From: Longivirga aurantiaca
GTDB lineage: Bacteria > Actinomycetota > Actinomycetes > S36-B12 > CAIYMF01
Assembly: GCF_042660085.1 (NCBI RefSeq)
Contig: NZ_JBHSTI010000008.1
Location: 1,989,876 to 2,021,875 of the forward strand
DNA length: 32,000 nucleotides
Reading direction: 5' to 3'
A program made the translations under genes and the position numbers. Of the stretch, positions 1 to 12,016 are shown piece after piece; the first letter of the stretch is position 1, and every line of letters starts with the position of its first letter. The notes below the pieces were generated by a model that worked only from the letters and a program-made list of their open reading frames with translations, made no database searches and was not told the DNA's origin.

Positions 1-1
1 C

Positions 2-274
2 CTCGAGCTGGTGGAGGACGTCGCCCGACTCGACGAGCTGTCCGCGCGCGACTGCCGAACGCATGCCCTCGACCACCTCGACATCGGCCGGACCGTGCGC
101 GGTTACGAGGCCGTGTTCGCCACGACGGTGGCCTCGGGCGCCAACCGTGCCCGGCCCCAACGCCTCCCCCTACCGCCTCGACAACGCGGCCATGAGCCGC
201 TCGCCGACGTACGGACCGCGGCCGTCGACCTGACGTTGCGGGTGCCCCAGCTCATCCCCAAGGAGAACTCATGA
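2..274 (+). CDS. 3' end of a gene entering from upstream; the C-terminal fragment weakly resembles the tail of a GT4-type glycosyltransferase
   Basis: Open frame from base 2 (LELVEDVARLDELSARD...GRTVRGYEAVF...) to TGA 272-274. The stop overlaps the next start (ATGA). No start codon in the window. The family call rests only on a short C-terminal resemblance. Confidence 0.35.
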   Translation, partial: LELVEDVARLDELSARDCRTHALDHLDIGRTVRGYEAVFATTVASGANRARPQRLPLPPRQRGHEPLADVRTAAVDLTLRVPQLIPKENS

Positions 275-582
275 AGAAGCTCATCCTGATCGGCATCGGC
301 GGAGCCATCGGCTACGTGCTCGGCGCCCGCGCCGGACGACCCGCGTACGACCGGCTCCGCGACGGCTGGCAGGGCCTCACCCGCCGCGCAGGGCTCGACG
401 ACCTCGCCACCACGGCCAAGGAGGCAGCCGTGGACGTCCGTGACGTCGCCGCCGAGCGTGCATCCGACGCCATGTCCAAAGGCGCCGACGACCTCGCCCG
501 GCGCATCGACAACCTCGCGCCGAACCGCAGCAACGACGCGCACCGCACAGGGTCTGACCTCCCCCTTCCCTCCGGTCCGTGA
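271..582 (+). CDS. Small membrane-anchored hypothetical protein (YtxH-like general-stress flavour)
   Basis: ATG 271 is preceded by AAGGAG. N-terminal hydrophobic helix KKLILIGIGGAIGYVLG is followed by a charged Ala/Asp/Arg-rich tail. Strong GC3 bias. Confidence 0.6.
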   Translation: MKKLILIGIGGAIGYVLGARAGRPAYDRLRDGWQGLTRRAGLDDLATTAKEAAVDVRDVAAERASDAMSKGADDLARRIDNLAPNRSNDAHRTGSDLPLPSGP

Positions 583-608
583 CCGGCAGGCCTCGGACGA
601 CCGGGCGC

Positions 609-634
609 GTTTGCCGGGCACCGTCAGCGGGCAT
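609..634 (+). promoter_or_regulatory. SigF/SigB-type promoter candidate P1: GTTTGC-N14-GGGCAT
   Basis: GTTTGC 609-614, 14-nt spacer, GGGCAT 629-634. The ATG at 644 lies 10 nt after the -10 box, implying a leaderless or near-leaderless mRNA. Confidence 0.55.
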
Positions 635-643
635 CCAGCGGGC

Positions 644-835
644 ATGACCGAGCAGATGCACGAGCCGGACGCCGTGGCCGACGAGAAGGCACGCGCCCAG
701 AAGGTCGAGCGCGAGGCCCTCGCCGACGGCGGCGGCCGTGCCTCGCCCGCCGACGAGGCAGCCGACGACGAGTCGAGCTATTCCACCGAGGCGGAGCAGG
801 GCGCTGCTCAGCCCACCCCCGACGGCCGGCACTGA
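644..835 (+). CDS. 63-aa acidic hypothetical protein, probably translated from a leaderless mRNA
   Basis: MTEQMHEPDAVADEKARAQKVEREALADGGG... has very strong GC3 bias. The longer 440..835 version overlaps the 271..582 gene in another frame. The P1 motif sits immediately upstream. Confidence 0.55.
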   Translation: MTEQMHEPDAVADEKARAQKVEREALADGGGRASPADEAADDESSYSTEAEQGAAQPTPDGRH

Positions 836-851
836 CCACTGCGTCACCCAG

Positions 852-876
852 GTTTAGCCCTGGCCTGCCAGGGAAC
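852..876 (+). promoter_or_regulatory. SigF/SigB-type promoter candidate P2: GTTTAG-N13-GGGAAC
   Basis: GTTTAG 852-857, 13-nt spacer, GGGAAC 871-876. It lies 48 nt upstream of ATG 924, which has the SD AAAAAGGAGAAGG. Confidence 0.55.
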
Positions 877-923
877 CGCTGAGGTCGCGCCACCGGACGG
901 GTGGCGGAAAAAAGGAGAAGGAC

Positions 924-1193
924 ATGCTCTGGTTCATCATCGTCACCATCGTGATCGGCTTCGTGGCCGGTCTCATCGCCCGTGCGATCCTGCCCGGCAA
1001 CGACTCGATGGGTCTCCTGGCGACGACCGCCCTCGGCATCGTGGGGTCGCTGCTCGGCGGCTTCCTCGGATACCTGATCACGGGTAGCGACCGCGCGGAC
1101 GGCGCGTTCCAGACGTCCGGGCTCATCGGCTCGGTGATCGGCGCGGTCCTCGTGCTGCTGCTGGTCCGGATGCTGCGTCGTGCTCGCGCCTGA
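924..1193 (+). CDS. GlsB/YeaQ/YmgE-family (transglycosylase-associated) stress membrane protein
   Basis: 89 aa with three Gly-rich TM helices (MLWFIIVTIVIGFVAGLIARAILPG...GIVGSLLGGFLGYLI...GLIGSVIGAVLVLLL), typical of the family. Strong SD. Confidence 0.85.
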   Translation: MLWFIIVTIVIGFVAGLIARAILPGNDSMGLLATTALGIVGSLLGGFLGYLITGSDRADGAFQTSGLIGSVIGAVLVLLLVRMLRRARA

Positions 1194-1767
1194 CCGGGGC
1201 GTCACGCCCCTGCGCCCCGCCGAGGACTTCATCCGCGACGTCGAGGCGTTGCGCACCCAGGCCCGGGAGAACCTCGACCGGGGCGCGGTCTCCGCGGCGT
1301 ACGGCGCGGACCTCGAGCGGGTCGTGCAGATGCTGCAGACGGCGCTTGCCACCGAGCTGGTCTGCGTCCTGCGCTATCGCCAGCACCACTACGCCGCCAC
1401 GGGTATGGACGCCGAGCCGATCGCGGCGGAGTTCCTCGCCCACTCCGAGGAGGAGCTGGGGCACGCCGGCCTCATCGCCGCGCGCATCAGCCAGCTCGGG
1501 AGCAACCCGGACTTCTCGCCGTCCACCCTCGAGGGGCGGGCGCACAGCGAGTACGTCGAGGCCGACTCGCTGCGCGCGATGGTCACGGAGAACCTCGTGG
1601 CCGAGCGGGTGGCCGTCGCCGCGTACACCGACATCATCGAGTGGCTCGGGTCGTCCGACCCGACCACCCGGCGCATGCTCGAGCAGATCCTCGCCGTGGA
1701 GGAGGAGCACGCCGACGACCTCGCCTCGATGCTCGACGGCCTTCCGGCAGCGACCGGCCCGGCCTGA
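1180..1767 (+). CDS. Ferritin-like / bacterioferritin-family domain protein
   Basis: Di-iron four-helix-bundle style motifs: ELVCVLRYRQHHY, EFLAHSEEELGHAGLIAARISQLG, EQILAVEEEHADDL. GTG 1180 overlaps the preceding gene by 14 nt, so the start is uncertain. Confidence 0.75.
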   Translation: MLAPDRGVTPLRPAEDFIRDVEALRTQARENLDRGAVSAAYGADLERVVQMLQTALATELVCVLRYRQHHYAATGMDAEPIAAEFLAHSEEELGHAGLIAARISQLGSNPDFSPSTLEGRAHSEYVEADSLRAMVTENLVAERVAVAAYTDIIEWLGSSDPTTRRMLEQILAVEEEHADDLASMLDGLPAATGPA

Positions 1768-1812
1768 TCGACGCGCCGGCATCCCCGGCGCGAACCACTC
1801 TGGAGGCACACC

Positions 1813-1968
1813 ATGATCATTCTCGGACTCATCCTCGTGATCGTCGGCTGGCTCACCAGCACCTCGATCCTCATCACCCTCGGGGCCATCCTCGCGGTGG
1901 TCGGCGTGGTGCTCGCGCTGCTCGGCGGCACGGGCCGCCCGGTGGCCGGCAGGGCGCACTGGTACTAG
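1813..1968 (+). CDS. 51-aa two-TM hydrophobic peptide (DUF6131-like small membrane protein); absent from the supplied ORF track
   Basis: ATG 1813 is preceded by GGAGG. Sequence MIILGLILVIVGWLTSTSILITLGAILAVVGVVLALLGGTGRPVAGRAHWY, stop TAG 1966-1968. Near-perfect GC3 bias. Confidence 0.65.
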   Translation: MIILGLILVIVGWLTSTSILITLGAILAVVGVVLALLGGTGRPVAGRAHWY

Positions 1969-2003
1969 GAGGACCTGAGCCTCGCACGACCTGGCTCACC
2001 GTC

Positions 2004-2039
2004 GACGGCGCGGCTGCGGGCGACCGCGGCCGCGCCGTC
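2004..2039 (+). terminator. Hairpin terminator candidate after the glsB-like/ferritin-like/small-peptide operon
   Basis: Perfect 11-bp inverted repeat GACGGCGCGGC (2004-2014) / GCCGCGCCGTC (2029-2039), with additional GCGG/CCGC pairing inside. No U-tract, which is common in actinobacteria. Confidence 0.5.
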
Positions 2040-2059
2040 GTCGTCCGCGTGGCCCGGAT

Positions 2060-2085
2060 GTTTGGGACCTCGCACGAACGGGCAC
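2060..2085 (+). promoter_or_regulatory. SigF/SigB-type promoter candidate P3: GTTTGG-N14-GGGCAC
   Basis: GTTTGG 2060-2065, 14-nt spacer, GGGCAC 2080-2085. It lies 56 nt upstream of the GTG 2141 start of the PP2C gene. Confidence 0.45.
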
Positions 2086-2140
2086 AGGGGCACCGAGCCG
2101 CGCCCTCCACCGGGGGCCCGACCCGCCACGACCACGAGGG

Positions 2141-3928
2141 GTGGTTGCACTGCCGATCGACAACGACACCGACGCGCTGCACGCGCTCTCCGTCGAGCTC
2201 GCCGGTGCCGTCGACGCGGCCGAGGTGGTCGAGGTCATCACCGCGCACTGCGCACCGCTCCTGCGCGCCAGCATGGTCACGGTCTCCACCGTCGAGGACG
2301 ACGGCACGACACTGCGCCTCGTGTCGTCGGTGAACACGCCGACCCCTGTCGTCCTCGCGTTCGACACCCATGAGAGCGGAGCGACGTTGCCCGCAGGCGA
2401 CGCGCTGCGCTCGGGCCAGCCCGTGGTGATCCGGTCCGTGGACGAGCTGCACGAGCGCTACCCGGGCCTCACGGAGGTCGACCTCGAGCACAACGCGCTG
2501 TGCGTCCTCCCCCTCCTGCGCGGCGAGGAGCCGGTGGGGGTGCTCGGCCTCGGCTGGTGCGACGCCGCCGAGATGACGGCCGAGGTCGTCGAGCTCTCGC
2601 AAGCCGTCGCCGAGGTCTGCGCGTCTGCGCTCTACCGCGCGGTGGCCGCGGCGCACCCAGGGCACGACCGCACACGGTCCGAGGCTGCCCTCGCGAGCCT
2701 GCGCTCCCTGCAGGCCGTCGCCGCCGAGCTCGCCCATACCGTCGACCTGTCGCAGGCCGCGGCCGTCGTGCTCGAGCACGCCGTCATCGCCCTGGGCGCC
2801 GAGGCCGGTGCCCTCAACGTCCTCGACGACGACGGCACCGAGTGCACGCAGATCGCCACAGTCGGGCTCGACGGGACCGAGATGGCCGGCCTGACCTCCT
2901 GGCAGGTGCGCGACTCGTCGCTCGCTCGCGAGCTCGTGCGCACCGGCCTGCCGATACTGATCACCGATTCCGAGTGCCTGCGCCGGCGCTTCCCCGACCT
3001 GGTCACGCAGGAGCCGCGGCAGGAGGCCTGGGCCACCCTGCTGCTGACCTCGGGATGCCGCAACCTCGGCATCGTCTCGATCGGCTGGCGCGAGCCGCGG
3101 GAGTTCAGCAGCGAGGACGTGAGCCTGCTGCAGACGCTGGCCGACCACCTCGCGGCGGCGCTGGACCGCAACCGCCTGATGTCGAGCAACGACGCGCTGC
3201 TCACGGAGAGCACCCGCATCGCGGAGACGCTGCAGCGTTCACTCATGCCAGGGCCGCTGCCGGAGTGGCCCGGGGTAACGATGGCCGCCGGCCTCCAGCC
3301 CGCCGAGCTGGGCACCGAGGTCTGCGGGGACTTCTACGACGCGTTCCCCGCGGTCGACGGGTCGCTCGTCGTGGTGATCGGCGACGTCGCCGGACGCGGT
3401 GTCAACGCTGCGGGGCTCACGGGCATGGTGCGCCATACGCTGAGGGCGCTCGCGCGGGACATGCCCCCTGCCGAGGCCCTCTACCGGCTCAACCGCGCAC
3501 TCGTCGAAGGTGCATGGGTGGACGAGCCGCGGCTGCTGACCGCCGCGATGCTGCGGCTCACGCGGCTCGACCACGGCATCCGGGCCGAGATCTCCCTCGC
3601 CGGCCACTGCTTGCCGGTGGTGGTCCGCGACCGTGTCGCGGAGCACGTCGGGGTGCCGGGGATGCTGCTGGGCGCCTTCGCCGACGTGCGCATCGGCACC
3701 GTGACGGTCGACCTCTCCCCCGGCGACCTCCTGCTGCTGCACACGGACGGCGTCACCGAGGCGAGGCGTCACGGCGTCGAGTTCGGCGAGTCCCGGCTGC
3801 TCAAGCTGCTCTCGGCCATGACCGACCCCCGGCCCGACGACACCGTCGAGCACGTGCTCGGGTCGGTGGACTGGTACCGCACCACCGCGCCCGATGACAT
3901 GGCCGTTCTCGTGGTCCGCGCGACCTAG
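2141..3928 (+). CDS. GAF-GAF-PP2C (SpoIIE/RsbU-type) serine phosphatase, a probable partner-switching input phosphatase
   Basis: 595 aa. Two GAF-like N-terminal modules. The C-terminal PP2C has GDFYDAF, VVIGDVAGRGVNAAGLTGMVRHTLRAL, LLLHTDGVTEAR and DDMAVLVV motifs. Confidence 0.85.
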   Translation: MVALPIDNDTDALHALSVELAGAVDAAEVVEVITAHCAPLLRASMVTVSTVEDDGTTLRLVSSVNTPTPVVLAFDTHESGATLPAGDALRSGQPVVIRSVDELHERYPGLTEVDLEHNALCVLPLLRGEEPVGVLGLGWCDAAEMTAEVVELSQAVAEVCASALYRAVAAAHPGHDRTRSEAALASLRSLQAVAAELAHTVDLSQAAAVVLEHAVIALGAEAGALNVLDDDGTECTQIATVGLDGTEMAGLTSWQVRDSSLARELVRTGLPILITDSECLRRRFPDLVTQEPRQEAWATLLLTSGCRNLGIVSIGWREPREFSSEDVSLLQTLADHLAAALDRNRLMSSNDALLTESTRIAETLQRSLMPGPLPEWPGVTMAAGLQPAELGTEVCGDFYDAFPAVDGSLVVVIGDVAGRGVNAAGLTGMVRHTLRALARDMPPAEALYRLNRALVEGAWVDEPRLLTAAMLRLTRLDHGIRAEISLAGHCLPVVVRDRVAEHVGVPGMLLGAFADVRIGTVTVDLSPGDLLLLHTDGVTEARRHGVEFGESRLLKLLSAMTDPRPDDTVEHVLGSVDWYRTTAPDDMAVLVVRAT

Positions 3929-3935
3929 CCCGGCG

Positions 3936-4823
3936 TCAGCTCCCGCCCTCCGCGAGCGCCGTGGCCTCCGCGAGCGTGCGCTGCACCAGTCCGCCCGCCT
4001 CGACCTCCGTCCAGCTGACCGGCGTCGCCGCCGTCGGCCGCTCCCTCCCCCGCAGCGACCACGGGACGATCGTCGTCTTGGCCGGGTTGTTCTGGCTCCA
4101 GTCGACGAGCACCTTGCCGGGCCGCAGGTCGCGTGCCTGCCGGGTGACCACGAGGGCGGGCAGCGCCGCCTCGAGCCGCGCGGCGAGCGCGTGGGCGTAG
4201 TCGCTCTCCGAGCCGGCGTCGTGCACCGCTTCCGCGCCGTCACCGAGATCGGCGTACAGCTGCATGCCCTTCGAGCCGCTGGTGACTGCGCGGGCGACGA
4301 GGCCGTCCGCGACCAGCAGACCGCGGGTCGCCAGCGCCACCTCGGCGCACGCGTCGAGCCCGGCCGGCGCCCCGGGGTCGAGGTCGACGACCAGCCGGTC
4401 GGGCGCCAGCGGCTCGCCCGTCGCGCGGTCGACGCGCCACTGCGGCGCGTGCAGCTCCAAGGCGCCCGACTGCGCGAGCCACACGAGCACCGCCTCGTCG
4501 TCGACGAGCGGGTAGTCGAGGTCGCGCCCCTCGTGGCCGGACCGCTGACCCGTGTGGTGCTGCGTCATGCGCGGCACCCAGTCGGGCGCGCCGCGCGGGA
4601 GGTTCTTCTCGATGAACGGCTTCTGCTCCACGCCGTCCGGCCAGCGCTTGCGCGTGACCGGCCGGTCGCGCATCTCGGGCAGGATCGACGGAGCGACGGC
4701 GAGGTAGTACTGCAGCACGTCCGCCTTGGTGGTCGCGGTTGCCGGGTACAGCACCTTGTCGAGGTTGGTGACCCGCACCTCCCGCCCGGCGACCGACAGC
4801 CACCCACCCTCGGCGCCGCTCAC
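3936..4823 (-). CDS. ligD: Stand-alone LigD polymerase/primase domain protein (NHEJ PolDom)
   Basis: 295 aa. Opening (V)SGAEGGWLSVAGREVRVTNLDKVLYP, then VDLDPG, SGSKGMQLY and KVLVDWSQN motifs are typical of the LigD Pol domain. No ligase or nuclease domain. Divergent from ku. Confidence 0.85.
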   Translation of the reverse strand: MSGAEGGWLSVAGREVRVTNLDKVLYPATATTKADVLQYYLAVAPSILPEMRDRPVTRKRWPDGVEQKPFIEKNLPRGAPDWVPRMTQHHTGQRSGHEGRDLDYPLVDDEAVLVWLAQSGALELHAPQWRVDRATGEPLAPDRLVVDLDPGAPAGLDACAEVALATRGLLVADGLVARAVTSGSKGMQLYADLGDGAEAVHDAGSESDYAHALAARLEAALPALVVTRQARDLRPGKVLVDWSQNNPAKTTIVPWSLRGRERPTAATPVSWTEVEAGGLVQRTLAEATALAEGGS

Positions 4824-4868
4824 ACGAGGACCTCGTCCGCAGTCTTCGACAGGCGCCGTTGCGCGCTG

Positions 4869-4894
4869 GTTTGGCTCCCGGTCATGGCGGGCAT
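4869..4894 (+). promoter_or_regulatory. SigF/SigB-type promoter candidate P4: GTTTGG-N14-GGGCAT, upstream of ku
   Basis: GTTTGG 4869-4874, 14-nt spacer, GGGCAT 4889-4894. It lies 40 nt upstream of ATG 4934, with SD GGAGGAG at about 4921. Confidence 0.55.
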
Positions 4895-4933
4895 CCTCTC
4901 CGATGGTGTACGTCCCGACGGAGGAGAACGACG

Positions 4934-5923
4934 ATGCAGTCGATGTGGAAGGGGTCCGTCTCGTTCGGGCTCGTCAACGTGCCGGTCAAGCTGTACGCCG
5001 CCACCGAGGACCACGACGTGCGTTTCCACCAGGTCCACGCCGCCGACGGCGGCCGCGTGAAGATGGTGCGCACCTGCTCGGTCGACGGGCAACCCGTCGC
5101 CTACGCCGATCTCGCGAAGGCGTACGAGACCAGCAGCGGTGAGCTCGTGGTGATGGAGGAGCGCGACTTCGACGCCCTGCCGGTGCCGGGCAAGCGCGAG
5201 ATCGACGTGCTCGAGTTCGTACCCTCGGACCAGGTCGACCCGGTGCTGTTCGACCGCAGCTACTACCTCGAGCCCGAGGCCCGGGCCCTCAAGCCATACG
5301 TCCTCCTGCGCGAGGCGCTGCGCACCACCGAGCGCACCGCCCTCGTGCGCGTGGTGCTGCGCCAGAAGGCCCAGCTCGCGGCGCTCCGCGTGCGCGACGA
5401 CGTGATCCTCATGCAGACGATGCTGTGGCCGGACGAGGTGCGGCGTGCGACGTTCGATGTCCTGCACACCGACGCCGAGGTGCGCCCGCAGGAGCTCGCC
5501 ATGGCGTCCTCGCTGATCGACAGCCTGTCGAGCGACTTCGACCCCGACGAGTACCACGATGACTACCGCGAGGCCCTCCTCGAGGTGATCGACCGCAAGG
5601 TCGCGGGCGGCGCCGGAGTGCCGGCCGACACCGCAACCGTCCCCGAGGACGAGGGCGACGCCATAGTGGTCGACCTCATGGCCGCGCTGCGCGAGTCGGT
5701 GAAGAGGACGAGCGCAGGCGAGGACGCCCGGGCCCAGAATCGTCCGGCGGGCCCTGCGACGAGGGCCGCCCCGAAGAAGGCCGCTGCCAAGAAGGCGGCG
5801 GCGAAGAAGGCTGTCGGCACGAAGTCTGCCGCGAGCAAGCCGACGCCGCGGAAGGCCGCTGGTCCCACCAAGGCGGCGGCGAAGAAGGCCGCTTCGAAGC
5901 CCGCGCGGAGGCGCAGCGCCTGA
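4934..5923 (+). CDS. ku: Ku DNA end-binding protein with a Lys/Ala-rich basic C-terminal tail
   Basis: MQSMWKGSVSFGLVNVPVKLYAATEDHDVRFHQVH... is a canonical bacterial Ku N-terminus. The tail reads AAPKKAAAKKAAAKKAVGTKSAASKPTPRKAAGPTKAAAKKAASKPARRRSA. Confidence 0.95.
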   Translation: MQSMWKGSVSFGLVNVPVKLYAATEDHDVRFHQVHAADGGRVKMVRTCSVDGQPVAYADLAKAYETSSGELVVMEERDFDALPVPGKREIDVLEFVPSDQVDPVLFDRSYYLEPEARALKPYVLLREALRTTERTALVRVVLRQKAQLAALRVRDDVILMQTMLWPDEVRRATFDVLHTDAEVRPQELAMASSLIDSLSSDFDPDEYHDDYREALLEVIDRKVAGGAGVPADTATVPEDEGDAIVVDLMAALRESVKRTSAGEDARAQNRPAGPATRAAPKKAAAKKAAAKKAVGTKSAASKPTPRKAAGPTKAAAKKAASKPARRRSA

Positions 5924-5981
5924 CGGGCGGGGCAGTGCGGGACAGCGGCGCATCGGTGTGCTGGCCTCCCCCGGGGCGAGT

Positions 5982-6017
5982 GGTGCCCGGGACGGGAGGG
6001 GTCTCGTCCCGGGCACC
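5982..6017. terminator. Strong hairpin between convergent ku and hemerythrin genes (bidirectional terminator candidate)
   Basis: Perfect 13-bp arms GGTGCCCGGGACG (5982-5994) / CGTCCCGGGCACC (6005-6017), extendable to about 16 bp around a GGGG loop. No U-tract. Confidence 0.6.
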
Positions 6018-6023
6018 TCCGAA

Positions 6024-6048
6024 CTACCCGGCGGCCCAAGCGGCAAAC
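6024..6048 (-). promoter_or_regulatory. Orphan SigF/SigB-type promoter candidate P5 (minus strand): GTTTGC-N13-GGGTAG
   Basis: Minus-strand read is GTTTGC (6048-6043), 13-nt spacer, GGGTAG (6029-6024). It points into the 5982-6017 hairpin and the antisense of the ku 3' end. There is no plausible downstream ORF. Confidence 0.4.
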
Positions 6049-6069
6049 CTGGGACGTCGGGGAGCGTGG

Positions 6070-6486
6070 TCAGCGCGCGGCCTCGGGGCTGCCGCTCATC
6101 CGCTGCCCCAGCTCCTGCAGGTCCTTGCGCCCGAACGCCTCGCGCACCGCGGGGAAGAGCTCGCTCTCCTCCTCCTCGATGTGGTGCTTCACGTTCTCGA
6201 TGAGCACCGTGGCCTTGGCCCGGTAGGTCTCCGCGCCGGGGTCCATCGCCCGCAGCTCGCCGATGAGCATGTGCACCACGTGGTGCTCCTCGATCGACTC
6301 CAGCACGAGGTCGCGGCCGGGGATGACGTCCTTGACCTCGGGGTAGAAGTAGGTCTCCTCGATCGCAGCGTGGCGGTCGAGCTCGTCGCAGATCGTGGGC
6401 ACGACCGACGTCTCGCCCTTGTCGAACCGGGTGAAGAGCTTCTTCACGGCTGCGTGGTCCTCGCGCAGCATGACGATGGCGTCCAT
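6070..6486 (-). CDS. Hemerythrin-domain protein
   Basis: 138 aa: MDAIVMLREDHAAVKKLF...EETYFYPE...EEHHVVHMLIGEL...VKHHIEEEESELFP (His/Glu/Asp di-iron ligand pattern). SD GGAGAC lies before ATG 6486. Confidence 0.85.
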   Translation of the reverse strand: MDAIVMLREDHAAVKKLFTRFDKGETSVVPTICDELDRHAAIEETYFYPEVKDVIPGRDLVLESIEEHHVVHMLIGELRAMDPGAETYRAKATVLIENVKHHIEEEESELFPAVREAFGRKDLQELGQRMSGSPEAAR

Positions 6487-6529
6487 GGTGGTCTCCTGTC
6501 GTGGCGGTGCGGGTTCGCACCGGTCCCGA

Positions 6530-6554
6530 CTACCCCCGCGGCGCACGGCGAAAC
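6530..6554 (-). promoter_or_regulatory. SigF/SigB-type promoter candidate P6 (minus strand): GTTTCG-N13-GGGTAG, upstream of hemerythrin
   Basis: Minus-strand read is GTTTCG (6554-6549), 13-nt spacer, GGGTAG (6535-6530). It lies 44 nt upstream of ATG 6486. Confidence 0.55.
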
Positions 6555-6567
6555 GCGCAGGGACCGG

Positions 6568-8679
6568 TCACGGCAGCTGGTGCGCCACGAAGGGGGTGAC
6601 GCTGCGCGCCCCGGCCTCGCGGAGCAGAGCCCCGGCGAGCGTGGCGGTCCAGCCCGTGCGCCAGGTCTCGTCGACGAGCAGCATCGGGCCCTCAGGCACC
6701 TCGGCGCCCGGGGCGAGCGAGATGCGTGCTGCCTGCGCGCACGCGCGCCCGGCGGGCGAGAGGTCGGAGCCGGGCGGAGGCCCGTCCAGCACGATCGCGT
6801 CGAGGAGGGGGATGCCCACCCCGTGCGCGATGGTCACGGCGATCGAGTGCACGAGGCGCGGATGCCGCGAGCTCGGCACCGGCGCAACCGCCTCGAGCCG
6901 CTGCGGCAGCGACGGGAGCCAGCGGCCGAACGACCGCTCCAGTGCGGCGAGCAGCCAGTCAGGCGCCGGAGCATCGGGGGCCAGGGGCCCGGTGACCGTG
7001 GCCATCCGGTCCCACGCCGGGTCGTCGGCGAAGGCGAGCGCGCGACCGGGCGAGAGGGCGAGCGACGGCGCGATCCGTCCGCGCCATGCGGGCCGTCCGC
7101 TCGCGGCGTCGATGCCGGAGGTGAACATCTTGCGCGGCTCGAGCGGCACGACGAGGTCGCGCAGCCAGGCGCGCGCCGCCTCGCGAGCCTCGGGGTCGGT
7201 GGTGGTCGGGAGCCCGGCCGGGAGCGTGCCCGTGCACACCGAGCAGCGGCCGCACCGTTCTCCCTGCTCGGTCGGGTCGTCGAGCGAGCGCCGCAGCAGC
7301 ACCTCGAGGCAGTCCCCGCCGACGACGTACTCGCGCATGATGTCCGACTCGCGCCGGCGCACCGCGACGAGCGCGTCGTACTTCTCGTGGTCGTAGGTCC
7401 AGTCCTGGCCGGTCGCGGCCCACGACGTGCCCTCGCGCGACACCGCGCCGTCGACCGCGAGGACCTTCACGAGCAGCTCCACGCGGGTGCGGCGTACGCC
7501 GGTCGCGGCCTCGAGGGCGGGCACGCTCAACGCGCCCTGGTAGCGCAGGGCTGCGAGCACGGCGGCCGCCTCGTCGGGCCTCGGCACGCTGGCGGTGGCG
7601 AACCACTCCCACAGCCGCTCGTCCGAGTCGCCGGGCAGCAGCACCACGCTCGCCTCGGGCAGCGCGCGGCCGGCGCGGCCGACCTGCTGGTAGTAGTCGA
7701 CGGGCGACGACGGCGAGCCCACGTGGATGCAGAACGCGAGGTCGGGCTTGTCGTAGCCCATGCCGAGGGCGGAGGTGGCGACGACGGCCTTCAGCTCGTT
7801 GACCTTGAGCGCAGCCTCGATCCGCGCGCGGTCCGCGGTCTCGGTCTTCCCGGAGTATGCCGCCACCGCGTGACCGCGCTCGGCGAGGAACCCGGCGAGG
7901 CGGTCGGCGTCCGCCACCGTGAGGCAGTAGACGATGCCCGACCCCGGCAGCTGCCGCAGCGCCTGGTCGGTCCACGCATAACGGTCGAACGACGACAGCC
8001 CGGCGAGCACGCCGAGGTGCAGCGACTCGCGCGCGAGCCGGCCGCGCTGGACGAACGTGTTGGCGCCGAGCTGGTCGGCGACGTCGGCCGTCACCCGCGA
8101 GTTGGCGGTGGCGGTCGTGGCCAGCACGGGGAGGTCCGGGTTGGCCAGCAGCAGACCGGCGATGCGCTGGTAGTCGGGGCGGAAGTCGTGGCCCCACGAC
8201 GAGATGCAGTGGGCCTCGTCGATCACGAGGAGGCCGAGCTGCGGCAGCAGCACGTCGAGCACGGTCGCGGAGAAGCGCGGGTTGGCGAGGCGCTCGGGCG
8301 ACACGAGCAGGACGTCGACCTGCCCCGCCATCAGTGCGCGCTCGACGTCGGGCCAGTCGTCGAGGTTGGAGGAGTTGAGCGTGGCCGCGGTGAGCCCTGC
8401 GCGCTGAGCGGCGACGACCTGGTCGCCGATAAGCGAGAGCAGCGGCGACACCACGAGCACCGGGCCTCCCCCGGCGTCGCGGACGGCGCGCGCGGCGATC
8501 CAGTAGACGGCCGACTTGCCCCATCCGGTGGCCTGGACGACGAGCGCGCGACGCCGCTCGAGCACGAGCGCCGACACCGCCGCGCGCTGGTCGTCGCGCA
8601 CGATCGCGTCGGGCCCTGCGAGCGCGGTGATGACGCGCGCAGCCGCCGCGTCGAGCGCTGCCGCGGTCACGGCGGTCAC
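6568..8679 (-). CDS. RecQ-family (RqlH-like) DNA helicase with a tetracysteine module and a C-terminal phosphoribosyltransferase-like (ComF-like) domain
   Basis: 703 aa. Helicase motifs ATGWGKSAVYW, VIDEAHCISSWGHDFRPDY and ATTATAN. A Cys cluster (GGDC...CGRCSVC). The C-terminus has LLVDETWRTGWTATLAGALLREAGA, resembling a degenerate PRTase loop. GTG 8679 overlaps the upstream stop (GTGA). Confidence 0.85.
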   Translation of the reverse strand: MTAVTAAALDAAAARVITALAGPDAIVRDDQRAAVSALVLERRRALVVQATGWGKSAVYWIAARAVRDAGGGPVLVVSPLLSLIGDQVVAAQRAGLTAATLNSSNLDDWPDVERALMAGQVDVLLVSPERLANPRFSATVLDVLLPQLGLLVIDEAHCISSWGHDFRPDYQRIAGLLLANPDLPVLATTATANSRVTADVADQLGANTFVQRGRLARESLHLGVLAGLSSFDRYAWTDQALRQLPGSGIVYCLTVADADRLAGFLAERGHAVAAYSGKTETADRARIEAALKVNELKAVVATSALGMGYDKPDLAFCIHVGSPSSPVDYYQQVGRAGRALPEASVVLLPGDSDERLWEWFATASVPRPDEAAAVLAALRYQGALSVPALEAATGVRRTRVELLVKVLAVDGAVSREGTSWAATGQDWTYDHEKYDALVAVRRRESDIMREYVVGGDCLEVLLRRSLDDPTEQGERCGRCSVCTGTLPAGLPTTTDPEAREAARAWLRDLVVPLEPRKMFTSGIDAASGRPAWRGRIAPSLALSPGRALAFADDPAWDRMATVTGPLAPDAPAPDWLLAALERSFGRWLPSLPQRLEAVAPVPSSRHPRLVHSIAVTIAHGVGIPLLDAIVLDGPPPGSDLSPAGRACAQAARISLAPGAEVPEGPMLLVDETWRTGWTATLAGALLREAGARSVTPFVAHQLP

Positions 8680-9488
8680 GCGGGCACCGCGTCGAGGGAG
8701 TCGACGAGGGCGGCCAGGGCGGCACCGAGCCGGGCGACCTCGGCGGCCACCGGCTCGCCATCGCCGTCGAGGTACTGGTCGCGGCGGATCTCGACCATGA
8801 GCGACGACACCCGCCGGTCCTTCCCGTAGTGGCGCAGCGGCACGTACGTGCCGGCGAAGGGCTGGTCGACGGCGGTCTCCCACTCGCGGAACGCTTCGGC
8901 CGCGCGGTCACGAAGCCAGCCCGGGGTGTGCCGCTCGTCGAAGCCGAGGCACACGGCCGGGCGCGCGGCCTCGGGGTGGCGCTCGTAGGGCAGGACGTCG
9001 CGCGGGTAGGAGTGCACGTCCACCACCAGCGCACGTCCGTGCGCGTCGAGCCGCGCCGACACGAGGTCGGCGAGCGACTCGGCGTACGGCGTGAAGTAGC
9101 GCGCGAGGAGGTCTGCGCGATGGGCCGGGTCGGCGTCGCGCAGCGGCCCGAGCACCGACGTCGCGGTGTAGACCGCCCCCATGCCGATCGCGTCCATCTC
9201 CTCCGCGCCGGGCTCGGTGAACCGCTCGGGGTCGACGACGAGGCGCGAGAGCCGGTTGACGAACGACCACGGCCGGATGCGCGCCGCCGCCGCCGCGTGG
9301 GCCGCTACGACATCGGTGGACGCATCGGTCATCGCGCGCAGCTCGGCGGCGAGCGCGTCGTCGTCGAGCAGGATCCGTGCGCGGACGTCGGACGGGATGA
9401 CGGTCGAGGCGTGCGGAACGTGCAGCACCACGGACGACGAGGCGTCACCGGGGACGACGTCGAACGAGGACTGCTGCGCGGAGGCCAT
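8676..9488 (-). CDS. N-formylglutamate amidohydrolase (FGase) family hydrolase
   Basis: 270 aa. VVLHVPHASTVIPSDV, LVVDPERF and ALVVDVHSYP are typical of the FGase family. Translationally coupled to the helicase. Confidence 0.75.
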   Translation of the reverse strand: MASAQQSSFDVVPGDASSSVVLHVPHASTVIPSDVRARILLDDDALAAELRAMTDASTDVVAAHAAAAARIRPWSFVNRLSRLVVDPERFTEPGAEEMDAIGMGAVYTATSVLGPLRDADPAHRADLLARYFTPYAESLADLVSARLDAHGRALVVDVHSYPRDVLPYERHPEAARPAVCLGFDERHTPGWLRDRAAEAFREWETAVDQPFAGTYVPLRHYGKDRRVSSLMVEIRRDQYLDGDGEPVAAEVARLGAALAALVDSLDAVPA

Positions 9489-9495
9489 GGGAGCG

Positions 9496-9501
9496 ACCGT
9501 A
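9496..9501 (-). promoter_or_regulatory. Candidate -10 box TACGGT (TANNNT) 7 nt upstream of ATG 9488; a leaderless FGase-helicase transcript
   Basis: Minus strand reads TACGGT-cgctccc-ATG, with no SD. This geometry is typical of actinobacterial leaderless genes. Confidence 0.35.
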
Positions 9502-9595
9502 GGCGACGGGTGCGACGGCAGTGGGGCGGGGCGGCGCGCGCGGTCCGCGGCGGTGGGCCGCACGGACGCACGCCCGGACCTAGCATGACCACGAT

Positions 9596-9620
9596 GTTTG
9601 GCCCGCCTCCGAGGGGGTAC
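9596..9620 (+). promoter_or_regulatory. SigF/SigB-type promoter candidate P7: GTTTGG-N13-GGGTAC, upstream of the HATPase/STAS pair
   Basis: GTTTGG 9596-9601, 13-nt spacer, GGGTAC 9615-9620. This is the best match to the consensus in the window. It argues against the upstream ATG 9585 as the start of the next gene. Confidence 0.6.
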
Positions 9621-9662
9621 TGGCATCTCGTGAGGTGCGCTCGGACCAGCCGAAGGACTGTT

Positions 9663-10088
9663 GTGACGCAGAGGCGGAAGCCCGCCGCCACCGGTCGTGG
9701 TGGGGGCGCGGTGACGCTCGTCCTCGACGAGGACGGGCGCGCGGTGTGGCGATCGACTCTGCGCAGCGCGCTCACGGAGGCCGCGTCGCCTGGCACGGTG
9801 GAAGACGCGATCATCGTGGCGGGAGAGCTCGTGGCGAACGCGCTCGAGCACGGTCTCCCGCCGGCCACCCTCGAGGTGGTCGTCGAGCCTGCGGGCTCGG
9901 TGCTGGTGTCGGTGCTCGACCATGGCTCGGTCGTTCCGCTGTCACCGATGCCGATCTCGCTCGAGGCGGTGCGGGGGCGCGGGCTCCTGATCGTGGACTC
10001 CCTCACGACCGAGTGGGGCGTTCTCGAGAGCGCGAAGGGAAAGGCCGTCTGGGCACGGGTGGCCAGGGACGGCGAGGCAGGACCGTGA
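9663..10088 (+). CDS. RsbW-like HATPase serine kinase / anti-sigma regulatory factor
   Basis: N-box ELVANALEHG, G1-like VSVLDHGSV, G2-like GRGLLIVDSL. Start chosen at GTG 9663 (SD GAAGGA, downstream of P7). ATG 9585 or other GTGs are possible. Confidence 0.75.
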   Translation: MTQRRKPAATGRGGGAVTLVLDEDGRAVWRSTLRSALTEAASPGTVEDAIIVAGELVANALEHGLPPATLEVVVEPAGSVLVSVLDHGSVVPLSPMPISLEAVRGRGLLIVDSLTTEWGVLESAKGKAVWARVARDGEAGP

Positions 10089-10111
10089 AGACCAACGAGA
10101 GGCAGACCCCC

Positions 10112-10429
10112 ATGTCACCAGCACCCGTCGTGATCACGCTCGCGGGCGAGTACGACATCGCCAATGCACCCGAGCTGCTGGAGATCCTGACCAGCGGCGG
10201 ACCCGAGGCGCCCGTCGTCGCCGACCTCCGGGACGTGACGTTCCTCGACTCCGCGGCGCTGTCGCAGCTCGTGCGCGCGAACTCCCAGCTCTCGGAGGCT
10301 GGCGGCTCGCTCACGCTGGTGCTGCCGACCTCGGGGCCGGTCGCCAGGGTCATGTCGATCACGCAGCTGGACTCTGCCCTGACCACGACGGGCTCGGTCG
10401 AGCAGGCGCTCGCCGATCTCGGCGGCTGA
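10112..10429 (+). CDS. STAS-domain anti-sigma-factor antagonist (RsbV/RsfB-like)
   Basis: 105 aa. VVITLAGEYDIANAPELLE...ADLRDVTFLDSAALSQLV, with the conserved phosphorylatable Ser in the DS(A/G) context. Confidence 0.85.
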   Translation: MSPAPVVITLAGEYDIANAPELLEILTSGGPEAPVVADLRDVTFLDSAALSQLVRANSQLSEAGGSLTLVLPTSGPVARVMSITQLDSALTTTGSVEQALADLGG

Positions 10430-10450
10430 GGCGGTCGGCCGGGCTGCCGG

Positions 10451-11311
10451 TCACTCGTCGAGCAGGCCTTCGCGCAGCACGGCGAGCGACTTGGCCAGCA
10501 GCCTCGACACGTGCATCTGCGAGATGCCGACCTCCTCGGAGATCTGCGTCTGGGTCATCCCGCGGAAGAACCGCAGCACCAGGATCCTGCGCTCGCGCGC
10601 CGGCAGCTGCGCGAGCAGGGGCCGCAGCGACTCGCGGTACTCGATCGTCTCGATGCCCGGGTCGTCGGCGCCCATGAGGTCGGCCAGCGACCCGGAGTCG
10701 TCGGACGAGCCGACGTGGGCGTCCAGGCTCGTGTAGCTGTACGCCTGCGCGCCCTCGAGACCCTCGAGCACCTCCTCCTCGCTGATGCCGAGCTGCACCG
10801 CGAGCTCCGCCACGGTGGGCGTGCGTCCTGTTCGCTGTGAGAGCTCAGCCGTCGCCTGACCGAGCGACATGCGCAGCTCCTGCAGGCGCCGCGGCACGCG
10901 GATCGCCCACCCCTTGTCGCGGAAGTGCCGCTTGATCTCGCCGATGACGGTGGGCGTGGCGTACGTCGCCAGCTCGACGCCGCGCTCGAGCTCGAACCGG
11001 TCGACCGCCTTGAGCAGGCCGATCATCCCCACCTGGGTGAGGTCCTCGAGCGGCTCGCCGCGGTCACGGAACCTGCGGGCGAGGTACTGCACCAGCGGGA
11101 TGTGCAGGGTGACGAGGTCGTCGCGCGCCCGTTGGTGCTCGGCGGACTCGGCGTCGGTGCTCGCCAGCACCTCGAGCAGCTCGCGCTCGCGCGCCCGGTG
11201 GGCGTCGCCCCAGCCGCGCGGCAGCACGGCGTCGCCCGACGGCTCGTGGGCGGGCGTCACGTCCTCGTCGGTCGGCGGCGGCGCGCCCGCATGCGCCGCG
11301 GAATGGTTCAC
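10451..11311 (-). CDS. sigF: SigB/SigF/SigG-family alternative sigma factor (closest in look to mycobacterial SigF)
   Basis: Regions 2-4: EDLTQVGMIGLLKAVDRF, YATPTVIGEIKRHFRDKGWAIRVPRRLQEL, LVLRFFRGMTQTQISEEVGISQMHVSRLLAKSLAVLR. GTG 11311 overlaps the anti-sigma stop (GTGA). Confidence 0.9.
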   Translation of the reverse strand: MNHSAAHAGAPPPTDEDVTPAHEPSGDAVLPRGWGDAHRARERELLEVLASTDAESAEHQRARDDLVTLHIPLVQYLARRFRDRGEPLEDLTQVGMIGLLKAVDRFELERGVELATYATPTVIGEIKRHFRDKGWAIRVPRRLQELRMSLGQATAELSQRTGRTPTVAELAVQLGISEEEVLEGLEGAQAYSYTSLDAHVGSSDDSGSLADLMGADDPGIETIEYRESLRPLLAQLPARERRILVLRFFRGMTQTQISEEVGISQMHVSRLLAKSLAVLREGLLDE

Positions 11312-11742
11312 GACGGGTCGGCCGACGAGGTGCCGGTCGACGTGGTGCCGGTCGACGTGGTGCCGGCGGTGGCGCTCGAGCGCGACGCGCGCAGCGAGAT
11401 GGTGACGCCGTCCGGCGTCTCCTCGGCCCACAGGTCGACCACCAGCGCGGCGAGCACGGCCCAGGCGAAGCTGTCCTCGCTCGGCAGCACCGATCCCTCG
11501 CACCGGCCCGTGATGCTGATGAGGACGGCGGCGTCCTCGACGTCGAGCCGTACGTCGATCACCGAGCCCGGCTCGGCGCTCGCGGCCAGGAGTCCGGCCG
11601 CCTCTCCGACGGCCAGGCGGATGTCCTCGAGCTGCTCGAGGTCGAATCCCACGCGCGAGGCGACCGCGACCGCGGTGGAGCGCACCAGTGACACCCAGCC
11701 GGTCTCGGCCGGCACGGACAGTCGAACGGCGTTCTGGGTCAT
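11308..11742 (-). CDS. rsbW: UsfX/RsbW-like anti-sigma factor
   Basis: 144 aa immediately upstream of, and overlapping, the sigma gene, as in mycobacterial usfX-sigF. Has EDIRLAVGEAAG and DSFAWAVLAALVVDL. SD GAGGAG. No clear N/G1/G2 kinase boxes seen. Confidence 0.75.
   Translation of the reverse strand: MTQNAVRLSVPAETGWVSLVRSTAVAVASRVGFDLEQLEDIRLAVGEAAGLLAASAEPGSVIDVRLDVEDAAVLISITGRCEGSVLPSEDSFAWAVLAALVVDLWAEETPDGVTISLRASRSSATAGTTSTGTTSTGTSSADPS
11329..11366. repeat. 15-bp tandem repeat (about 2.5 copies) inside the anti-sigma 3' end
   Basis: GGTGCCGGTCGACGT x2 plus a partial third copy. On the minus strand it encodes TSTGT-TSTGT in the Ser/Thr/Gly tail. Confidence 0.8.
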
Positions 11743-11860
11743 CCGAGCTGCTCCTCGTCACCGGTGGGCATCGTGCCTGCGACGCTAACGCCGTGGCCGG
11801 GTCGCCACCAGCGCGCGCACGGTGGCGCGGACGGGGCGAGGGCACAGATCACGATGCGTG

Positions 11861-11886
11861 CTGCCCCCGATCCGGCCATCCCAAAC
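11861..11886 (-). promoter_or_regulatory. SigF/SigB-type promoter candidate P8 (minus strand): GTTTGG-N14-GGGCAG, upstream of rsbW-sigF (autoregulation)
   Basis: Minus-strand read is GTTTGG (11886-11881), 14-nt spacer, GGGCAG (11866-11861). It lies 119 nt upstream of ATG 11742. Confidence 0.45.
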
Positions 11887-11905
11887 CTCGGGCCTGAACG
11901 GATGG

Positions 11906-11959
11906 GCGATTCGTTAGTGGAATCTCGCACTCGGCCCCGAGTTTCCACTACCGAATCGC
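11906..11959. repeat. Long imperfect inverted repeat / hairpin in an AT-richer intergenic patch
   Basis: 17-bp arms GCGATTCGTTAGTGGAA (11906-11922) / TTCCACTACCGAATCGC (11943-11959) with 1 mismatch. A nested perfect 6-bp repeat ACTCGG/CCGAGT (11929-11942) lies inside. Confidence 0.8.
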
Positions 11960-12016
11960 GCGCGGATGCGCCGATAGCAGTCGCTTCGCGCGTGGCGGCC
12001 GAGCATCCTGGCCCGT

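Follow-up and report, generated by a model that had tools for sequence, protein, structure and literature searches.

We analysed a 32,000-nt stretch of the Longivirga aurantiaca genome (referred to here as the window), which contains ku, the gene for the end-binding protein of non-homologous end joining (NHEJ). NHEJ is thought to be most important in non-replicating, desiccated or dormant actinobacteria. In the window, ku is transcribed divergently from ligD-pol, and the 110-bp gap between the two start codons (GTG at 4823 on the minus strand for ligD-pol, ATG at 4934 for ku) holds a putative promoter of the SigF/SigB type, P4, that faces ku. This gap and its flanking genes lie in an island of stress genes that is shared with two related genomes. 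The features of the locus are:

3936-4823, minus strand: ligD-pol, LigD primase-polymerase domain only (PF21686, 1.1e-72; TIGR02778, 232 bits)
4869-4874, plus strand: -35 element of P4, GTTTGG; GTTT is unchanged across the three island-sharing genomes
14 nt between GTTTGG and GGGCAT, plus strand: spacer of P4, CTCCCGGTCATGGC
4889-4894, plus strand: -10 element of P4, GGGCAT, then CC; GGGnA is unchanged across the three genomes
4902-4933, plus strand: predicted 5′ untranslated region (UTR) of ku, including a CGnnGGTGT box and the Shine-Dalgarno (SD) sequence GGAGGAG
4934-5923, plus strand: ku, 329 aa, with a Lys/Ala-rich C-terminal tail (Pfam Ku, 7.6e-48; TIGR02772, 309.6 bits)

The product of ku is a true bacterial Ku, which exceeds the cut-offs of TIGR02772 (Ku_bact; 309.6 versus 150 bits, residues 3-256) and of Pfam Ku (PF02735; 163.4 versus 25 bits). 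A longer open reading frame (ORF) from TTG 4859 was dismissed, since all orthologue alignments begin at ATG 4934. The SD sequence occupies positions 4920-4926, and 39 nt separate the -10 hexamer of P4 from the ATG. P4 fits the form of promoters read by group 3 sigma factors, GTTT(nn) and GGGnA(T/C) with the hexamers 13-15 nt apart. The original prediction, which had been made from the letters of the window, had described P4 in this position ahead of ku and had stated that it has the -10 hexamer and the following CC in common with a further site, P1. Both statements were confirmed: P1 (609-634) also contains GGGCAT followed by CC, and the string common to the two sites is GGGCATCC. It had further claimed that no such motif is directed toward ligD-pol, and indeed none was found at up to 1.5 mismatches in 4761-5000. 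A pattern scan for the sigma-70 consensus gave zero matches in 4700-6100, and the actinobacterial -10 sequence TANNNT was absent from both strands in 4701-5060. P4 is therefore the sole recognisable promoter of ku, and ligD-pol has no recognisable promoter of the SigF, sigma-70 or TANNNT type in these intervals.

Sequences very similar to P4 are known from mapped promoters. Those of the SigB homologues of Streptomyces coelicolor include GTTTCG-N14-GGGCAT (SCO2026p) and GTTTGC-N14-GGGTAC; in this set the -10 element hardly varies at its three G's and its A, GTTT is typical of the SigF/SigH/SigN group, and transcription starts roughly 7-10 nt downstream of the -10 element (PMC8346170). For SigF of Mycobacterium smegmatis the consensus is GTTT-N14-19-GGGTA, with GGGCA variants, and the promoters of its regulon have a spacing of N15/16 (PMC4694148). 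Based on the distances between the -10 element and the start site at the mapped promoters (PMC8346170, Table 2), we infer that ku transcription starts at about G4902/A4903, 8-9 nt 3′ of the -10 element, with a leader of about 30 nt.

In order to judge how often such a motif arises by chance, we compared motif counts in the window and in the genome. GTTT-N15/16-GGGYA was found 7 times in the 32-kb window (0.07 +/- 0.26 expected, 100 shuffles) and 20 times in the complete 3.67-Mb genome with 72% G+C, in which other spacings from 8 to 25 yielded about 0-7 matches each, mostly 1-4. Twelve of the 20 genome matches fall within 15 kb (C8:1986764-2001761), a stretch that begins 3 kb before the window and covers its first 12 kb, and 8 of these 12 stand 9-55 nt ahead of an ORF with high G+C at third codon positions (GC3). 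The genome was also scored with a position matrix built solely from island sites of the two sister genomes, their ku sites excluded. The ku site came seventh in the whole genome, and the island accounted for 13 of the 18 best positions. From the 8 matches outside the island in 7.3 Mb (both strands), a 110-bp gap is expected to hold a match in the right orientation with a probability of about 1e-4. The island itself (window 1-12000 together with G000:C8:1986764-1989875, G000 being the genome of the window) contains 12 strict SigF-type motifs and at least one further motif of the GGGAAC type.

Evidence for conservation comes from three related genomes, namely that of the window and its closest relatives, G021 and G018. 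The Ku proteins of these relatives are 76-79% identical to the one in the window over the full length (85% and 83% in the best-aligned segments). Both relatives share the gene order of the island, with a 63-aa ORF, a transglycosylase-associated gene, (Dps), PP2C and ligD-pol divergent from ku, continuing past ku with RecQ, FGase, STAS, sigF, rsbW and DUF222, and their islands contain 11-14 motif copies each. Ahead of ku, at the same distance to the ATG, G021 has GTTTCA-N14-GGGTAC and G018 has GTTTGG-N14-GGGAAT. The -10 forms of the three genomes (GGGCAT, GGGTAC and GGGAAT) are also found among the mapped promoters of S. coelicolor SigB homologues (PMC8346170). In a three-way alignment of the ku gap the invariant blocks are GTTT, GGGnA, the CGnnGGTGT box and the SD sequence, and the P4 spacers of the three genomes have just 4-7 of 14 bases in common. 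Invariant hexamer cores together with diverged spacers are the pattern expected of selected elements. The CGnnGGTGT box (4902-4912), which directly follows the -10 element and is kept in all three island-sharing genomes, could mark where transcription starts or be bound by an additional regulator.

A sigma factor that could read P4 is encoded about 5 kb from ku, next to genes of a partner switch:

about 10451-11200 (approximate start), minus strand: SigF-like sigma gene (TIGR02980, 296-299 bits, cut-off 234)
11308-11742, minus strand: RsbW/UsfX-like anti-sigma gene, directly upstream of sigF (HATPase_c_2, 27.7 bits; weak RsbW matches)
11886-11861, minus strand: SigF-type motif of the RsbW-like gene (motif scan)
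2141-3928, plus strand: GAF-GAF-PP2C (SpoIIE-type) phosphatase gene (SpoIIE, 5.5e-37; GAF_2, 3e-27), with a motif at 2060-2085
9635-10429 (approximate start), plus strand: STAS-domain region of the anti-sigma antagonist type (Pfam STAS, 3.5e-11; TIGR00377, 52.1 bits, slightly below cut-off), with a motif at 9596-9620

The island sigma is the single SigB/SigF/SigG-family protein of the genome above the TIGR02980 cut-off (next 131 and 118 versus 234 bits). It matches best to PRK07122 (mycobacterial SigF) with 310 bits, which is under the equivalog-level cut-off of 372. The GAF-PP2C phosphatase is likely to be the input of the partner switch. Further genes of the island that are preceded by the motif are the 63-aa ORF, the gene for the transglycosylase-associated protein, followed by a Dps/ferritin-like gene, and a hemerythrin gene (6486-6070).

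We consider it likely that P4 is functional, that it is read by RNA polymerase (RNAP) containing the island SigF-like sigma, and that it serves as the principal recognisable promoter of ku, which would be transcribed as a monocistronic mRNA. The view that ku is driven by a stress sigma, which was the core of the original prediction, is supported by the presence of a single sigF gene with partner-switch genes, the rarity and clustering of the motif, the hexamers kept in two relatives, the lack of another recognisable promoter and the match to mapped promoters (PMC8346170, PMC4694148). Since ku stands behind a SigF/SigB-type promoter within a dense island of stress genes, NHEJ is probably switched on together with the general stress response. 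As long as cells are unstressed, the RsbW-like protein would hold SigF. A signal (stress or growth arrest) perceived by the GAF-PP2C phosphatase would lead to dephosphorylation of the STAS antagonists, which would then capture RsbW and set SigF free. RNAP-SigF would initiate at about G4902/A4903 and produce a roughly 30-nt leader with a strong SD sequence, so that Ku would rise along with Dps, hemerythrin, the transglycosylase-associated protein and the products of the remaining island genes. Stressed or non-replicating cells, which have no sister chromosome for recombination, would thus have a supply of the protein that binds DNA ends in NHEJ. Within the pathway, regulation would act on Ku, possibly the limiting component, and the polymerase-only LigD and the LigC-type ligase would be expressed by other means.

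The partners of Ku are distributed as follows. The sole ATP-dependent ligase of the genome is of the LigC type (PRK08224, 529 bits) and is encoded at G000:C8:1391057-1391638, 600 kb from ku. Its gene comes 22 nt after a RibD_C gene and lacks a SigF-type motif. Because both ligD-pol and the LigC-type ligase gene lack the motif, Ku would be the regulated component. In another member of the genus, G009 (L115 10075-12008), a gene for the LigD ligase domain (TIGR02779, 232 bits, cut-off 227.75) is located between ku and ligD-pol; this gene is gone in the clade of the window. With the LigD ligase gene gone and LigC as the sole ligase, NHEJ would need Ku, the stand-alone polymerase and LigC.

A strict motif, GTTTGG-N14-GGGCAT, is present 1.4 kb from the LigC-type ligase gene (G000:C8:1389629-1389800; L118 73-240). 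It stands 10 nt ahead of the ATG of an ORF for a 44-aa hydrophobic peptide, which is probably leaderless and is followed by a GNAT acetyltransferase gene, and this unit is convergent with the ligase gene. Co-regulation of the ligase through this motif was rejected, since the motif faces the 44-aa ORF and the GNAT gene and not the ligase. Two other matches in the genome were noted. The second-best matrix match of all, GTTTGG-N13-GGGCAT at G000:C8:1048942, is located off the island; a simple ORF heuristic gave no downstream gene, and the motif could be another orphan promoter or one for a small RNA. The strict match GTTTACGGCGTGGACTACCAGGGTAT at G000:C8:1704870 was found to be identical in G004, G009, G018, G021 and G043. 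We take this match to lie in a conserved region of the 16S rRNA gene and therefore count it as a false positive, to be left out of regulon totals.

Several observations weigh against SigF control of ku, or restrict its scope. The original prediction had looked to conservation of the motif ahead of ku in relatives. This part stood for G021 and G018 but failed for more distant relatives: the motif is not ahead of ku in any other genus member examined, it is missing from 78 of 79 further related actinobacterial ku loci (the single carrier being a sister genome), and the strict motif was found at none of the 30 ku loci of the phylum, taken from a sample of 300 genomes. Relaxed matches occurred at 3 of these 30 loci, all of them atypical with a GGGGA -10 or a GGTT -35 element. 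A general conservation of the motif ahead of ku was thus rejected on the genus, 79-locus and phylum sets. The sigF orthologue is nevertheless kept in 26 of 28 genus genomes with 66-92% identity. As neither ligD-pol nor the LigC-type ligase gene has the motif, the NHEJ pathway as a whole is not visibly co-regulated. The published SigF regulon tables of M. smegmatis that were examined do not list ku (MSMEG_5580). Finally, a second SigF-type motif, described below, is directed at the 3′ end of ku and could counteract P4.

The surroundings of ku and sigF in the other genus members differ from those in the window. In four of them rsbW-sigF stands alone, with no island and no strict motif within 10 kb. 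Their ku has another location (480 kb away from sigF in G004, a different contig in G009), and it has a different, conserved upstream region without the motif. Within this leader (L004-L010, L019, L020, L024) the arms of an inverted repeat vary in a compensatory manner (e.g., CACCTCG...CGAGGTG as against CACGAC-type variants), and behind the repeat comes a CTTCCCC stretch that adjoins the SD sequence. This 5′ UTR may be structured and block access to the ribosome-binding site. The absence of the motif outside a small clade points to a lineage-specific wiring and not to a general actinobacterial rule. P4 is thus a trait acquired within one sub-lineage, where it goes along with the position of ku and ligD-pol inside the island and with the missing ligase gene, and the island is a recent, clade-specific concentration of the SigF regulon.

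Downstream of ku, in the convergent gap to the hemerythrin gene, two further features were found:

6024-6048, minus strand: second SigF-type motif, GTTTGC-N13-GGGTAG, directed at the 3′ end of ku
5978-6016, between ku and the hemerythrin gene: 13-bp GC-rich hairpin, starting about 8 nt after the -10 element of the convergent motif

The convergent motif is kept at the equivalent place in G021 and G018. The region of the hairpin folds with -69.4 kcal/mol over 121 nt (z = -2.9), and its stem and C-rich loop (GAGACCCCTCC) are nearly invariant in the three genomes, while the flanks vary. No Rfam family was assigned to the hairpin, for which merely sub-threshold, miRNA-like noise was obtained, and a dispersed repeat was ruled out by its single copy in the genome. 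The hairpin is likely to act as terminator of ku and as 5′ structure of any transcript that originates from the antisense motif. The region 5978-6048 is thus a candidate source of a small or antisense RNA that depends on SigF; it may also just be a shared terminator. A more far-reaching scenario can be drawn for the clade: ku and ligD-pol would have been captured into the SigF island with loss of the LigD ligase, and the one sigma factor would act on two promoters, P4 giving ku mRNA and the conserved convergent promoter, which would read through the nearly invariant hairpin into the 3′ end of ku, giving an antisense or small RNA. The resulting incoherent feed-forward loop would limit Ku to a stress pulse or threshold. 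We regard this scenario as speculative and rather improbable.

Other explanations for P4 have to be considered. P4 could be a conditional add-on, with an unrecognised housekeeping (SigA-type) promoter providing basal and most ku transcription and SigF having a modulating role. Actinobacterial SigA promoters can be very degenerate, and ligD-pol is presumably expressed from the same gap although it has no recognisable promoter. In addition, the start of M. smegmatis ku is leaderless and was mapped in growing or hypoxic cultures, with no link to SigF (supplement of PMC6448022). However, neither TANNNT on either strand of 4701-5060 nor the sigma-70 consensus was found, and the conserved blocks of the gap are confined to the P4 hexamers, the downstream box and the SD sequence. 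We therefore regard a mere add-on role of P4 as unlikely.

It is also conceivable that the motif is inactive, having arisen by chance or being in decay, e.g., left over from the rearrangement by which ku and ligD-pol came to lie in the island. The motif is kept in no more than three closely related genomes, and the match in the 16S rRNA gene illustrates that at least one strict match in the genome is a false positive. Against this stand the chance expectation of about 1e-4 per 110-bp gap, the invariance of the core in three genomes while the spacers have only 4-7 of 14 positions identical, and the fact that orientation, distance to the ATG and SD sequence all suit a promoter, which makes an inactive motif very improbable. 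Least of all do we expect that P4 is functional but read by a sigma factor other than the island SigF-like protein. In Streptomyces, several SigB homologues recognise each other's promoters of this kind (PMC8346170), but here only one protein exceeds the SigB/F/G cut-off (the next reach 131 and 118 versus 234 bits), and with the genome being 96% complete a missing sigma paralogue is unlikely. Transcription of ku from P4 by RNAP with the island SigF-like sigma thus remains our preferred explanation.

Comparison to known systems supports this assignment and at the same time reveals specific features of the locus. In S. coelicolor, with its nine SigB homologues, near-identical promoters were experimentally mapped; the nine paralogues show cross-recognition and no ku is among their listed targets, while only one sigma is present here (PMC8346170). 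SigF of M. smegmatis and M. tuberculosis resembles the island sigma in family, in promoter architecture and spacing, and in the anti-sigma/STAS/PP2C logic. The M. smegmatis SigF regulon includes hemerythrin, a transglycosylase-associated protein, Dps and RecQ (PMC4694148), the same gene families as found in the island. In contrast to the mycobacterial system, the -10 element here has C as often as T in its fourth position, and most of the regulon is packed in one 15-kb island. In S. ambofaciens, expression of kuA depends on the growth phase, but no sigma factor was assigned (PMC5124664), and in the actinobacterial literature searched in full text no report was found that ties SigF or SigB homologues to ku.

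Control of ku by alternative sigma factors is known from outside the actinobacteria. The Bacillus subtilis operon ykoV-ykoU (ku-ligD) is controlled by SigG, a sigma factor of the forespore (Wang et al. 2006, cited in PMC6379672 and PMC5124664), which agrees with the sigma-G control of ykoVU given in the original prediction. B. subtilis and the locus analysed here would have in common that a sigma factor of the SigB/SigF/SigG family acts on ku and that NHEJ is tied to a non-replicating state. In B. subtilis, however, this belongs to sporulation, and a single operon comprises ku and ligD, whereas here a general-stress island with partner switching is involved, the motif is present at ku only, and ligD is a polymerase-only gene on the opposite strand. 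In Sinorhizobium meliloti, ku3-ku4 and ligD4 are governed by RpoE2/EcfG, the sigma factor for general stress (Dupuy et al. 2019, PMC6379672), and of the ku-containing alpha-proteobacteria examined there, about 90% are reported to have putative EcfG-binding sequences ahead of one or more of their ku genes (PMC6379672). As predicted here, an NHEJ gene belongs to the general stress regulon and a promoter motif precedes ku, but the sigma factors are unrelated (extracytoplasmic function type versus group 3), the ligase is co-regulated in S. meliloti, and the wiring is phylogenetically broad there and restricted to three sampled genomes here.

Beyond the SigG and RpoE2 cases little is known on the regulation of NHEJ, according to the authors of PMC6379672. 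Like the SigG-ykoVU and RpoE2-ku modules, the locus has a putative promoter for an alternative stress sigma ahead of ku; the co-regulation of the LigD partner in these modules was not seen here, with ligD-pol and the LigC-type ligase gene both free of the motif. The predicted wiring of ku to SigF is sensible but restricted to a narrow lineage. It arose in one sub-lineage together with the relocation of ku and the loss of the LigD ligase, which argues for regulon turnover and not for a conserved rule. Control of ku by a stress or sporulation sigma is already established for SigG in Bacillus and RpoE2 in Sinorhizobium, and the L. aurantiaca locus very probably adds a predicted SigF case to these systems. 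It would be a clean example, with a single SigF-type sigma, one perfect promoter, a monocistronic ku and Ku alone being regulated.

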